Shown here piece by piece: positions 2,438 to 55,534 of a DNA stretch of 61,708 nucleotides. Positions within the stretch are counted from its first letter, which is position 1; every line of letters starts with the position of its first letter. The stretch lies in assembly GCA_042570405.1 (NCBI GenBank), contig JBHPGR010000006.1, positions 1-61,708 of the forward strand, written 5' to 3'. The translations under genes and the position numbers were made by a program. This stretch comes from Candidatus Omnitrophota bacterium. GTDB taxonomy: Bacteria > Omnitrophota > Gorgyraeia > Gygaellales > Profunditerraquicolaceae. The notes under the pieces are model-generated. The model did no database searches and had not been told where the DNA came from. It was given only the letters and a program-made list of their open reading frames with translations.

Positions 2438-3988
2438 ATGAAAAAAGAAAGAAAAAAAAGAAAGTGCACCAAGAAGGAAGTCGCCGCGATCATCGTCAAG
2501 GGTAAAAAGAAGGGGTATCTTACTTTTGACGACGTAAACGACATGCTCCCTGATAATATTTCAACTTCTGAGGATATTGACCGTGTCTTTGAGATCCTTG
2601 GAAGCGAAGGGATAAAGGTGCTTGAGAATCAAAGCGAAAAGGATTTTAAGAGTACGGGTGCGCAAACCCAGAAGGCCGAAGCGCTTAGCCAGCAGTCGCG
2701 CGTTGAGGAGAAATTCCTGCCGCTTGATGATCCGGTTAAGATGTATCTTAAGCAGATGGGTTCGATTTCACTGCTTTCAAGAGAGAACGAGCTGAAGCTG
2801 GCAAAGAAGATCGAGGAGGCAGAGAACAATTTTAAGCGTGAAACGCTTAAGACCAGATTCATCCGTAACCTGATCCTCGAAGTAGCGGATAAGGTTCTGG
2901 AGGAGAGGTTGAATTTTGAAGAGGTCCTCAAGGAGGATGTCAAGATCAGCAGGACAGGGATCTTGCGCAAAGTCAAAAGGCTGATCGACAGGGCAAGGAA
3001 GACGCGGAGCGTAAGAAAAAGTATCGAGTCCTTGATGGGATTTACGGCTGTAACTTCGGTGTTTGAGGAGGCATCACGCGCTCTTAGCGCCCTGATCAGG
3101 GAGTTTGGTTCCCTGAAGAGGCGTCAGAGCCGTACTAAGGCTAGCCGTCTGCGCAGACAAATGATCCTCTCGCAGATCGGAGAGCCATACTTGCAGACCA
3201 GGCAGCAGATGAAGATGATCAGGCTTACCCATATGAAGTTTAACCGCGCAAAGAAGCAATTGGTCGAGGCAAACCTTAGGCTGGTAGTGAGTATTGCAAA
3301 GAAATACACCAACAGGGGGCTGTCGTTTCTGGACCTGATACAGGAGGGGAATATCGGCCTGATGCGCGCAGTGGAGAAGTTTGAATACAGGAGGGGATAC
3401 AAGTTTTCTACCTATGCGACCTGGTGGATAAGGCAGGCGATCACACGCGCCATAGCTGACCAGGCGCGTACGATCAGGATCCCGGTACACATGACCGAAA
3501 CGATCAATAAGATCATCCGATTTTCGCGCGTCTTTGTCCAGAAGCACGGAAGAGAACCGACGCATGAAGAGATCTCTCATAAGATGAGCCTCCCGCAGAA
3601 TAAGATCAAGGCGATCCTGAAGGTGGCACAGGAGCCGATCTCTCTGCAGACACCGATCGGTGACGAAGGGGATACTCATTTCGGTGATTTTATCCAGGAT
3701 AAAAAGGCAGTTTCCCCGGCTAACGCAACCGTACACACGATGCTCAAGGAAGAGATGGGGGCTGCTTTGAACACCCTTACCGAACGTGAAAAGAAGATCC
3801 TTCTCTTAAGGTTCGGCGTGAATGACGGCTCCTCGCGTACATTGGAGGAAGTGGGCAATATATTTAAGGTGACCCGGGAGAGGGTGCGTCAGATCGAGGC
3901 AAAGGCCCTGAAGAAACTTAAGCATCCTACGCGCTCCAGAAGGCTGCGCGCATTTCTGGATATGACACTCGTCCACCAAAGGGATTAA
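2438..3988 (+). CDS. rpoD: Primary sigma factor (sigma-70)
   Basis: DDPVKMYL region 1.2, [46 protein letters not shown]; follows dnaG. Confidence 0.97.
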
Positions 3989-3998
3989 CCCGCCAAAA

Positions 3999-4037
3999 TT
4001 TAAGGGGCATTCTACTTTTCGTAAAATGCCCCTTAAA
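3999..4037. terminator. Probable bidirectional intrinsic terminator between rpoD and the convergent gene
   Basis: Inverted repeat TTTAAGGGGCATT...AATGCCCCTTAAA between two converging stop codons. Confidence 0.7.
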
Positions 4038-4052
4038 AGACCACATTAAGGT

Positions 4053-4388
4053 TTATTCTTCAGCTTTTGCGTCGAAAACGTAATCTGGCTTAAAGAGCGG
4101 CTCGTAGCCTGCTGGCGCTGCTGCCGGGAAGGTTACAATATCCCAAACTCCTGAGAGGATACGCATGGCAGCACAGCCAGTACCTTTGACGAGGCCGGCA
4201 AAGATCCCTATCGCAGCATTATTGCTTGCTGTCCACTCTTCATCAATGGTCTGCGGGATCTCGAAGATTGCCGTATAAATATTACCGATACCGCGGGCGA
4301 GCTTGTCAGCCGGGCCCTTTGCATAAGCCATTGAGGATATGCTTAAAATTAATACAACTACCAGTATCAAACCTAAGGTCTTTTTCAT
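4053..4388 (-). CDS. Secreted protein resembling the exosortase-system-associated TIGR04073 family
   Basis: Start moved to MKKTLG (AGGAGG upstream); signal peptide ending AYA; DKLARGIGN..EIP and G.WDIVTFP motifs. Confidence 0.65.
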   Translation of the reverse strand: MKKTLGLILVVVLILSISSMAYAKGPADKLARGIGNIYTAIFEIPQTIDEEWTASNNAAIGIFAGLVKGTGCAAMRILSGVWDIVTFPAAAPAGYEPLFKPDYVFDAKAEE

Positions 4389-4471
4389 CCTTCGCCTCCT
4401 TTGTATACAGGTTAGCATAGGTTATTTTTTTGTCAATAGAATTAATTTATACGCAGAAGGTAATTTTTGTC

Positions 4472-4500
4472 TTGCCAAAAGCCGGCAATAATTGTATTAT
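4472..4500 (+). promoter_or_regulatory. Candidate sigma-70 promoter upstream of the repeat array and tRNAs
   Basis: TTGCCA-17 nt-TATTAT. Confidence 0.45.
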
Positions 4501-4533
4501 ATAGTATTAAGTTTCAGCAGGTTAAGCAATTTC

Positions 4534-4833
4534 GGGCCCTCCCTCGTTGCTGATTCAAATTAGAGTGCAACTCGGGATGGGCTAATGAACTAATAGAGGG
4601 CCCATGGTTCGACTCCGCTCACCATTGGGCTCTGGAAGTTATAGCGGGCCCATAGCTCATACATTAAATTGATAGCGCAGTATGGCTATGGTCCAGCAAC
4701 TAATAGCGGGCCCATAGCTCATACATTAAATTAATAGCGAAGTATGGCTATGGGCTTAGGAAGCAATAGCGGGCCCATAGCTCATACATTAAATTAATAG
4801 CGAAGTATGGCTATGGGCTTAGGAAGTAATAGC
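4534..4833 (+). repeat. Tandem array of five tRNA-Ile-derived hairpin units
   Basis: GGGCCC starts at 4534, 4598, 4646, 4708, 4771 and at the tRNA (4834); last three units carry GGGCCCATAGCTCA, identical to the first 14 nt of the tRNA; each unit is self-complementary. Confidence 0.92.
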
Positions 4834-4905
4834 GGGCCCATAGCTCAGCGGTAGAGCAGGTGACTCATAATCACTTGGTCGGAGGTTCGATCCCCCCTGG
4901 GCCCA
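4834..4905 (+). tRNA. tRNA with CAT anticodon, probably tRNA-Ile2 (lysidine)
   Basis: GGGCCCA/TGGGCCC acceptor, GGTGA-CT-CAT-AA-TCACT anticodon arm, GTTCGAT T loop, no encoded CCA; acceptor sequence is Ile2-like rather than Met-like. Confidence 0.85.
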
Positions 4906-4937
4906 GTTGATAAATTCGTTGAAGGCCAAGGGGTTTA

Positions 4938-5014
4938 GGGCGATTGGCTCAGTTGGTTAGAGCGCCACACTCACATTGTGGAGATCGGAGGTTCGAATCC
5001 TCTATCGCCCACCA
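4938..5014 (+). tRNA. tRNA-Val(CAC)
   Basis: GGGCGAT/ATCGCCC acceptor, CCACA-CT-CAC-AT-TGTGG, GTTCGAAT, ends ACCA. Confidence 0.95.
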
Positions 5015-5027
5015 TTAAAGAAAAAGG

Positions 5028-5756
5028 ATGTCAAATACAGACCTTAAGTCACAGATAAAGAACCTCGTGCAGTTGCAGAAGGTTGATTCTCAGATCCACG
5101 ACCTGAAATACAAAAAGAGCCAGTTTCCCCAGGAGATTGAGGCGATTACCGCTTCCTTTGAGGCAAAGAAGCAGAGTCTGGCCGAGCTTGAGAAGGCGAC
5201 CCTTGACCTGGAGGTCAAGAAGAAGGAGGGGGAGGTGGACCTGGCATCAAAGGAGGAGCAGGCAAAGAAATTTCAGGGGCAACTTTATTCGCTGAAGACC
5301 AACGAAGAGTATAAGACGATGATGCAGCAGATCGAAGGGATTCATGCCGATGCCTCTGTCGTGGAAGATAAGGTCCTGGAGCTGCTTGAAAAAATCGAAG
5401 AATCAAAAAAGGCTATCGTTAAGGAAAGAGAGAGGCTCAAAGAGGAGGAAAAGTTATCTGGCCAAGAGAAGGCTAAGATCGAGGTGCGGATAAAGGAGAT
5501 CGACGGTCAACTGGCGCAACTGGATGCACAGAGAAAACAGCTCTCTCCGGGAGTAGATGCCAAGATCCTTAAACAGTACGAGAGGATCCTTGCAAACCGG
5601 GACGCGCTGGCGATAGTCGATATAAAGGATAACGCTTGTCATGGGTGTAATATGTCCGTGCCGCCGCAGGTGGTAAACTTGATCAGGATGTATGAACGTA
5701 TTGTGACCTGCGAGGTATGCAATAGGATATTATATATAAAGGATGAAGAAGCTTAA
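5028..5756 (+). CDS. Coiled-coil protein with C4 zinc ribbon (DUF164/CT398 family)
   Basis: Long coiled coil followed by CHGC..CEVC; usual neighbour of RNase H. Confidence 0.88.
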   Translation: MSNTDLKSQIKNLVQLQKVDSQIHDLKYKKSQFPQEIEAITASFEAKKQSLAELEKATLDLEVKKKEGEVDLASKEEQAKKFQGQLYSLKTNEEYKTMMQQIEGIHADASVVEDKVLELLEKIEESKKAIVKERERLKEEEKLSGQEKAKIEVRIKEIDGQLAQLDAQRKQLSPGVDAKILKQYERILANRDALAIVDIKDNACHGCNMSVPPQVVNLIRMYERIVTCEVCNRILYIKDEEA

Positions 5757-6144: not shown

Positions 6145-6584
6145 TCAGGAGGCAGGCGGAGAGTGGCCGCTCCCCCGCCAATTGGTGAGGGAGAGGAAAG
6201 TCCGGGCTCCACAGGATAAGCGCGCTCTGTAACACAGAGCCTCGCCGCAATTCGTGGCGGGAGGGAAAGTGCCGCAGAGAATAGACTGCCGATAGTCCGC
6301 TACTGCGGACATGGCGATGGTGAAAAGGTAGTGTAAGAGACTACCGTTGGCTGCAGCGATGCGGCTTGCACGGAAAACCCCGCGCGGAGAAAGGCGAAAT
6401 AGTCCCGTCAATCCCATATTTAATGGGAATAAAAGTGGTCCGCTTGAAATCCGGCATTCGCCGGATTGACGGGAGGGTAAGCTGCTTGAGTCCCGGCGGC
6501 AACGTCGGGATCGAGAGAAATGGTCACTGCGGTTGCGGTTAATCGCACCAAGACAGAACCCGGCTTATTCCGCCTGCTTTCTGA
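6145..6584 (+). ncRNA. rnpB: RNase P RNA (bacterial type A)
   Basis: GAGGAAAGTCCGGGCTCC, GAAAGTGCC.CAGA, GGTGAAA, ACAGAACCCGGCTTA; P1 pairing TCAGGAGGCAGGCGGA/TCCGCCTGCTTTCTGA. Confidence 0.96.
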
Positions 6585-55225: not shown

Positions 55226-55448
55226 GCGGGCATAGCACAGCGGCAGTGCAGTAGCCTTCTCCCGCTACGATATTGATTGATGCGGGGTTTCGCCTTAAGG
55301 TATGATATACGAAGGCTCAACAAGCTACCAAGAGAAGGGGGATTTGCGGGAGTAGTTCAGTGGTAGAACAATAGCCTTCTCCCGCTTCGGTATTGATTGA
55401 TGCGGGATTTCGCCTCTAAGTGTAATATGCGAAGGCTCAACAAGCTAT
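55226..55448 (+). repeat. Two tandem tRNA-Gly 5' halves, each with a 61-nt insert in the anticodon
   Basis: 55226-55259 identical to tRNA-Gly nt 1-34; inserts at 55260-55320 and 55380-55440; both resume CAAGCTA and then lack T arm and 3' acceptor. Confidence 0.88.
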
Positions 55449-55460
55449 ATAACAAGTAGT

Positions 55461-55534
55461 GCGGGCATAGCACAGCGGCAGTGCAGTAGCCTTCCAAGCT
55501 ACCTACACGGGTTCGAGTCCCGTTGCCCGCTCCA
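55461..55534 (+). tRNA. tRNA-Gly(TCC)
   Basis: GCGGGCA/TGCCCGC acceptor, GTAGC-CT-TCC-AA-GCTAC, GTTCGAG, ends TCCA. Confidence 0.93.

Follow-up and report, generated by a model that had tools for sequence, protein, structure and literature searches.

REP, BIME and REPIN elements, which are associated with RAYT transposases, are short hairpin repeats dispersed through intergenic regions, sometimes in tandem and with co-varying stems. Integrative elements are said, in a 2002 account by Williams, to leave att-site duplications in tRNA genes, and it is usually the 3' end of the tRNA that they duplicate. The 178-bp distal repeats of E. coli tyrT are arranged in tandem downstream of the gene, each with a fragment of the tRNA 3' end, and the Rfam family for the associated RtT RNA is RF00391. 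Pseudogenes of plastid trnF, for which there are Brassicaceae cases, are found upstream of the functional copy. According to one report, plastid trnF(GAA) pseudogene arrays are made up of tandem partial tRNA copies with anticodon, T and D domains, and their copy number varies between relatives (PMC3786074). The tyrT-linked RtT RNA comes from the tRNA operon and is freed on processing (Bosl & Kersten 1991, as cited in PMC4986893). Template-switch mutations are described as creating and maintaining hairpins (PMC8794818).

The window analyzed here, 61,708 nucleotides in length, is contig C6 of a 1.27-Mb Omnitrophota bin of 66 contigs that is 65% complete. Its RpoD is 57–69% identical to the proteins of the best 80 relatives, 79 of which fall within 64–69%. 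The region starts with dnaG (679-2433) and rpoD (2438-3988), and a small divergent ORF lies between rpoD and the array that is the subject of this study. The array abuts an intact tRNA gene with a CAT anticodon (4834..4905, forward strand), which has no encoded CCA and scores 67.2 bits against RF00005. ARAGORN calls this gene tRNA-Met(CAT) and Rfam a plain tRNA; we infer that it is of the Ile2 (lysidine) type, because an initiator-like and an elongator-like CAT tRNA are located elsewhere in the genome. The next gene, tRNA-Val(CAC) (4938..5014, forward strand), is a partner of tRNA-Ile2 whose downstream position is conserved in the order, the pair being present in all 19 of the relatives' loci. 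Further downstream are genes for a CT398-like zinc-ribbon protein and RNase H, and a bacterial type-A RNase P RNA gene (6152-6581) on the same strand, 1.2 kb from the array. The neighborhood of tRNA-Ile2/Val and RNase P RNA is also seen in relatives (L011, L012 and L019).

Five units precede the tRNA, all on the forward strand, starting at 4534, 4598, 4646, 4708 and 4771 with spacings of 64, 48, 62, 63 and 63 nt to the next start. Unit 5 (U5, 4771..4833) consists of tRNA nt 1–14, the fold-back arm GTATGGCTATGGGCT (16 pairs, one bulge) and the spacer TAGGAAGTAATAGC. Unit 4 (U4, 4708..4770) is the same save for one spacer base. Unit 3 (U3, 4646..4707) contains tRNA nt 1–14, TAC, a 17-nt loop, GTA, TGGCTATGGTCC and a spacer, with a variant 3' arm that ends in GGTCC. 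The two distal units enclose other hairpins: unit 2 (U2, 4598..4645) runs from GGGCCCA through a dispersed TGGTTCGACTCCGCTCACCA hairpin and TGGGCTC to a spacer ending in TTATAGC, and unit 1 (U1, 4534..4597) from GGGCCC through a dispersed TCCCTCG...CTCGGGA hairpin and TGGGCT to a spacer ending in TAATAGA. Tandem Repeats Finder reports a period of 63 with 3.5 copies (4626-4847, score 367). The 19-mer ATAGCGGGCCCATAGCTCA, which is the leader ATAGC plus tRNA nt 1–14, is present in four exact copies at 4641, 4703, 4766 and 4829 and is absent from 100 shuffles. In pairwise alignment with U5, U4 is identical at 62/63 columns, U3 at 56/63, U1 at 46/68 and U2 at 36/63. The preliminary description had reported the same five units and spacings before tRNA(CAT), the GGTC variant in the 3' arm of U3, a single difference between the two tRNA-proximal units with divergence rising with distance, and REP-like hairpins inside U1 and U2. 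All of this holds. The hairpins inside U1 and U2 belong to dispersed elements, of which the 65%-complete genome has 15 and 6 copies, respectively; the AT-rich interior of U3–U5 is unique to the tRNA-Ile2 locus.

Judged from folding energies, all five units form hairpins. The folds of U4 and U5 (−23.4 kcal/mol, z −3.7 and −4.1) and of U1 (−24.4 kcal/mol, z −3.5) are the strongest, those of U2 and U3 being weaker (z −1.8 and −2.3). Pairing in U4 and U5 involves tRNA nt 1–11 with GCTATGGGCTT and CATAC with GTATG, enclosing the 17-nt loop, and the stems of U2–U5 begin exactly at the tRNA-like +1. The units are not called as tRNAs by ARAGORN or RF00005, which identify only 4834-4905 and 4938-5014. 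No ORF of 60 aa or more is present in 4421-5027, and 44 nt separate the 19-nt repeats. Neither the units nor the other tRNA-flank elements described below could be assigned to an Rfam family (window at gathering score; 4000-5600 at E up to 10, with tRNA and chance matches only), and the RtT model has no match in 4000-5600 at E up to 10. The hairpin arms of U3–U5 have no exact-pattern match in metagenome contigs or in genome contigs. In a DNA search of 40 relatives, only the tRNA, the promoter and leader, and the inner hairpin of U2 were matched, and U3–U5 never. A CRISPR-like array was rejected, since the "spacers" of U3–U5 are one and the same sequence. Origin of a unit from a whole tRNA copy by internal deletion was also considered, and the matches, found by eye, are too weak (9 nt to the T loop in a unit at tRNA-Lys(CTT), 7 nt in U2).

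It is extremely unlikely that this structure is an assembly artefact, i.e. a repeat collapsed or expanded in a short-read metagenome bin. Such an origin might be suspected from the 66 contigs and 65% completeness of the bin, from the single base that distinguishes U4 from U5, and from an array at tRNA-Arg(ACG) that holds two identical units. Against it, U1, U2 and U3 are distinct sequences in a fixed order, the 63-nt units are shorter than a typical read and U3, U4 and U5 can be told apart from one another, and the same architecture is found in independent assemblies of other genera. As far as assembled sequence can establish it, the array is confirmed as real. The exact number of units is taken from the assembly alone, reads of the source sample not having been found: none of 24 sequencing runs contained more than 0.08 of the sampled sequence words, no RNA run was listed among them, and in runs X1–X4 coverage fell on the two tRNA genes only, with none over the array.

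The region upstream of the array indicates where the tRNA gene once began. A promoter-like site, TTGCCA-17-TATTAT (4472..4500, forward strand), matches the consensus at 10/12 positions and lies upstream of the whole array; it is the only such site on the plus strand in 4380-5060. It is followed by the original leader (4501..4533, forward strand). Promoters within the units were rejected, as they contain no consensus site and candidate −10 elements picked by eye in the spacers are inconsistent. The promoter and 33-nt leader are kept before tRNA-Ile2 in two relatives, G008 and G023. In the alignment, the tRNA of G008 starts at the position of the U1 start, the homologous leader stopping 2–3 nt before the tRNA, and that of G023 comes directly after the same promoter. 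Since the tRNA start in the relatives corresponds to the U1 start here, the GGGCCC of U1 is the displaced original 5' end, and the sequence up to 4833 has been added between it and the live gene. The proposal that older material is distal agrees with this position of U1. One groundwater contig (run X4) joins 4514 to 4834, with one side of the junction being 25 nt at 90% likeness, and is a weak hint of an array-less relative.

The preliminary description was to be given up if no comparable units occurred at tRNAs elsewhere; such units were found at other tRNAs both in this genome and in related ones. Four of the 38 tRNA genes here (Ile2, Arg-ACG, Lys-CTT and Gly-TCC) have an exact 11-nt upstream copy of their own 5' end. 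At tRNA-Arg(ACG) (C9:21586-21872; L026:1164-1373, minus strand) there are two identical 105-nt upstream units, each with tRNA nt 1–15, two small hairpins, the complement of nt 15–5 and a spacer, and tRNA-Lys(CTT) is preceded by one 60-nt unit. Both are of the canonical form, in which tRNA nt 1–13 are followed by a C-rich/G-rich hairpin (often TCCGCCACAAAGCGTTGGCGGA), a TTCRC box, the complement of tRNA nt 11 to ~4 and an A-rich spacer. In most class members the stem pairs nt 4–11, leaving nt 1–3 unpaired. Units in sister genera measure ~54–64 nt. They are found in G023 at Val-TAC and Lys-TTT (2/35 tRNAs scanned), in G010 at Arg-ACG, Arg-CCT (doubled), Phe and Pro-TGG (4/35), and in G005, with an 84-nt unit, at Lys-TTT (1/35).

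An alignment of seven units for a covariance model lost register at the inner hairpins, and a motif scan and a complementarity count were used instead. The motif TAGCTC..TTCRCTA..TAGCTCA has 26 matches in 19/401 genomes of the phylum, compared with 1 match for the reversed control. These matches concentrate in family f1, to which this genome belongs, with matches in 15 of its 60 other genomes as well as in this one. Copies of the canonical hairpin are few: among five genomes, 5 matches were obtained in three, with at most 3 per genome, and four of the five are at tRNAs, the other being in an rpsH–rplF spacer. No description of such a tRNA-front module was found in the full-text literature searched, and when Omnitrophota and Omnitrophica were used as search terms, neither word appeared in any match listed. 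The earlier statement that no named system has this layout is thus borne out in Rfam and in the literature covered.

Related elements were seen in two further settings. Upstream of tRNA-Gly(TCC) (55461-55534) are two pseudo-tRNA-Gly units of ~118 nt each (55226-55460). Each retains the acceptor 5' strand and D arm of the tRNA together with an anticodon arm whose loop (CTTCTCCC) has 8 nt, and is followed by a TCCCGC..GCGGGRTTTCGCC hairpin-box. The hairpin-box also makes up the first half of an element with two hairpins and GCTCATTAA at its end (G243:C1:95471-95495, L150; the leaders of L189, L196 and L197; the leader of tRNA-Ser(GCT) in G010). This element abuts tRNA starts and is found once in the rpsH–rplF spacer, so that the hairpin-box is not confined to modules with a tRNA copy.

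Among the 203 genomes of the family, a fold-back at tRNA-Ile2 is present only in this genome and in G456. The G456 unit (L201, among 17 rpoD-linked Ile2 loci) is a single canonical module, with the order GGGCCCATAGCTC, TCCGCCACAAAGCGTTGGCGGA, TTC, GCTATGGGC, TATGAACTGTTGAAAATTC. Its arm, GCTATGGGC plus T, is the arm of U3–U5; TGGGC+T closes U1 and U2 too, and the spacer start TATGAACT of the G456 unit matches AATGAACT of U1. The five units of the array thus have a common 3' shell (TGGGC+T) and related spacers, and as these are also present in G456, all five look like descendants of one module. This points to one ancestral module that was duplicated and whose interiors were swapped, rather than to five independent hits. 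The repeated disruption and re-duplication invoked in the preliminary description is not needed, given the common shell and related spacers and the presence of the shell in G456. The array resembles the canonical module in carrying the first 6–15 nt of the host tRNA at the original tRNA start position, and in having an antisense segment (GCTATGGGCT in U3–U5, TGGGCT in U1–U2) followed by an A/T-rich spacer and the intact tRNA. The C-rich/G-rich hairpin with the TTCRC box is absent from the array units: U3–U5 have no TTCRC box, and the TCCCTCG..CTCGGGA hairpin of U1 is without one.

The same evidence bears on whether the units could be scars of larger mobile elements (recombinase or homing-endonuclease based) that were successively integrated and excised at the 5' part of tRNA-Ile2, each leaving a displaced 5' fragment. 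Duplications of this general kind exist in the lineage. The 5' halves of tRNA-Ile2 (nt 1–37) are found 0.18–10 kb upstream of the intact gene at several places (G026, G029, G017, G012, G003 and L228), some of them with remnants of small GIY-YIG ORFs, and an intact GIY-YIG ORF (50.8 bits against PF01541) is present at tRNA-Asn of G010. However, those elements split the gene in the anticodon loop and not at nt 6–14, and the units here are 48–64 nt long with no cargo remnant; an ORF search of 4421-5027 revealed no element cargo or recombinase gene between the direct repeats. Furthermore, U4 and U5 are near-identical tandem copies, and the one type of shell and spacer in all five units marks them as paralogues of one module. 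We therefore consider such scars very unlikely. The small GIY-YIG genes are linked to a different class of event, namely the duplication of 5' halves at the anticodon loop.

Several of these 5'-half loci have features of their own. In L011, L019, L023 and L228, the Ile2 5' halves (nt 1–37) lie 0.18–0.7 kb upstream, the intervening DNA being full of small hairpin repeats, and at three of these four loci the last part of the insert, directly before the tRNA start, is the 3' end of a small GIY-YIG-like ORF. The tRNA-Asn locus of G010 (G010:C1:68620-68921, L076) has the same layout with the GIY-YIG ORF intact.

The complementarity between the fold-back arm and its own tRNA was assessed in 24 of the 26 motif matches, with one dropped at a contig edge (G194) and one whose spacer is shorter than the pattern allowed (G317). 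Complementarity extends at least 3 nt past the generic GCTA in 14 of the 24 units, compared with 1.2% of mismatched pairings, the related genomes in this count not being independent and at least seven different acceptor sequences being involved. The mean extension past GCTA is 2.6 nt for a unit's own tRNA and 0.24 nt for the acceptor strands of other units; four of the 24 units have no extension. In the unit of L137, the copy has diverged to AATCTCA and is matched fully by the arm TGAGATT. The antisense part is thus tRNA-specific, as judged by these pairings.

The most detailed view of how the module comes and goes is provided by the frr–tRNA-Lys(UUU) locus of genus g24. The tRNA is present at 29 of 30 loci, of which 18 are empty, 10 carry a single unit and 1 carries a tandem pair. 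At several empty sites the tRNA starts 3–5 nt past the frr stop codon, and at occupied sites (e.g. L169–L171) the upstream copy is located at that same position; others carry further inserts. The spacers are homologous, and the stems vary with compensating changes (TCCTCC/GGAGGA, CCCGCC/GGCGGA, TCCCC/GGGGGA). A tree of the flanking gene could be built for 19 of the 29 loci, the other ten being dropped where the stop codon was not found by the pattern or the flank was short. Occupancy on this tree implies at least five gains or losses, four of which are forced by well-supported branches, a distribution no better than that of shuffled labels. Well-supported sisters differ, with L179 empty and L180 occupied. 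The module has evidently been gained, lost or doubled at one locus within one genus, which bespeaks rapid turnover.

Both ends of tRNA genes carry duplicated fragments in this lineage. Direct repeats of the 3' end (T arm, acceptor 3' strand and trailer) bracket a structured module of ~140–170 nt behind tRNA-Trp and, doubled, behind tRNA-Gln(CTG). This 3'-side module has the conserved pattern GGGGTGAC..CCAGAGGGG..CCCTATGGGGAG and no Rfam match. Such repeats are found in this genome at C7:32172-32361, C10:9850-10185, C8 and C20 (L027–L030), and the repeats or the module in relatives at L012, L013, L015 and L023; at Arg-CCT and Pro-TGG, 3'-end repeats surround other inserts. The 3'-side module also lies between tRNA-Ile2 and tRNA-Val in three relatives, behind tRNA-Val in G001, and before tRNA-Leu(TAG), tRNA-Phe and tRNA-Glu(TTC) in this genome. 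At C2:60300-60640 of the same genome, a tRNA gene that is uncalled by ARAGORN has a long intron-like insert in the anticodon loop.

In view of the anatomy of the array, the homology of positions, the membership of the family, the target-matched antisense arm and the rapid turnover seen in the compared sequences, we consider it probable that the array arose by local amplification of one tRNA-front repeat module of an Omnitrophota family and is a stack in decay. We infer that slippage, template switching and co-transcription are involved and that the stack has no dedicated function. The module family would lodge at the first 6–15 bases of tRNA genes, and its inner hairpin would be exchangeable for other dispersed hairpin repeats. 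On insertion at tRNA-Ile2, the old 5' end would have been shifted upstream to its present place as U1, beside the former leader and promoter, with an intact gene left downstream. Growth of the stack probably followed, the exact 19-nt repeats (ATAGC plus tRNA nt 1–14) being the sites of slipped-strand or unequal recombination. Selection on the live tRNA would hold the proximal repeat perfect, so that new copies would arise beside the gene while older ones drift and have their interiors replaced, giving rise to the polarity. The gradient among the units is suggestive of such proximal growth, five units being too few for a proof. The fold-back complement could be made, or kept matched, by template switching between the arms.

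Since the one promoter-like site lies upstream and the units contain no other, transcription probably starts there and runs through the whole stack, giving a leader of ~330 nt that would be removed by an RNase P cut at the tRNA 5' end. It is conceivable, if unlikely, that such a transcript has a function, with the units acting as co-transcribed acceptor-stem mimics that are freed as small RNAs by RNase P or another RNase, or as decoys or timers of tRNA maturation; the array would then set the dosage. The stems of U2–U5 do begin at a tRNA-like +1 with the same ATAGC leader before it, the array has its single promoter upstream, and the type-A RNase P RNA gene is 1.2 kb downstream on the same strand. 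The class as a whole shows stem covariation and conserved loops, and small RNAs from tRNA operons are known, for example RtT, as described in PMC4986893. However, since most stems of the class pair nt 4–11 with nt 1–3 free, they are not acceptor-like, and the units are without a T-loop or an RCCA tail. The modules are also patchy in orthologous tRNAs and sister genomes, being present at Ile2 in 1 of 202 other genomes of the family, and the distal units decay and take in foreign hairpins.

The decaying stack of a repeat module that we favor leaves one feature of the class to be considered. Different genera and different tRNAs share a conserved hairpin, loop (ACAAAGCGTT) included, as well as a conserved box and spacer, and there is covariation in the stems. 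Such conservation is unexpected for a purely neutral by-product and suggests protein recognition or a selected structure. The modules could, at a low probability, be products of a target-templated, site-specific insertion system. In such a system, a small hairpin element would dock via antisense base-pairing to the 5' strand of the tRNA gene, much as the single-strand transposons of the IS200/IS605 type use guide sequences. It would be inserted after nt 13–14, with the 5' end of the gene rebuilt, and could be re-aimed at other tRNAs by changing 3–7 guide bases; in that case, the array would reflect a putative enzyme acting repeatedly at a single gene. No enzyme could be linked to the modules among the Y1-transposase and GIY-YIG genes that were looked at. 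A search for the Y1-transposase domain (PF01797) gave matches in 4/4 relatives and none in this genome, which is 65% complete. A simple regular-expression search of ~1.2 kb around seven Y1-transposase loci gave no hairpin-box motif at six and one likely chance match. No RAYT link was found, the Y1 genes at these loci not being flanked by the module.

If the array is only a repeat, as in the amplified stack that we favor, it is a clean natural example of a selected gene end anchoring directional repeat growth, and also shows an origin of long structured tRNA leaders. If the antisense arm guides insertion, the module would amount to a small programmable system for targeting DNA. Processing of the hairpins, if it occurs, would make them a new source of small RNAs from tRNA operons, and this in a phylum that lacks a cultured model.

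The combination of a copied 5' end, an antisense arm that matches the host tRNA and a conserved hairpin-box is seen in none of the systems compared. The likeness to REP/BIME elements lies in the dispersed inner hairpins of U1 and U2, with their 15 and 6 copies. Unlike them, the module is tied to the first bases of tRNAs, carries a copy and an antisense of the host tRNA, is low-copy and does not flank the Y1-transposase genes of the relatives, and the unit of U3–U5 is unique to one locus. The tyrT/RtT repeats are likewise tandem beside a tRNA gene and each carries a fragment of that tRNA's end, but they lie downstream, involve the 3' end and have no fold-back antisense arm. Plastid trnF arrays resemble the present array as tandem partial tRNA copies beside a functional gene; they differ in being organellar and in having neither a conserved foreign hairpin or box nor an antisense arm. 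Template switching could explain reverse-complement copies of neighboring sequence and, with no need for selection, co-varied stems such as that of the L137 unit, but it does not account for the hairpin, box and spacer common to different tRNAs and genera. As with att duplications, the inserted DNA is flanked by directly repeated tRNA sequence while the gene is left intact, whereas here it is the 5' end that is duplicated, the insert is a gene-free 44 nt, and it is tandemly amplified. Mobile DNA classically lands at tRNA genes, and the known cases duplicate the 3' part and involve gene-carrying elements; the module, of ~60 nt, sits at the 5' side, combines a copy of the host tRNA with its antisense, comes and goes within a genus and can accumulate into polar arrays.
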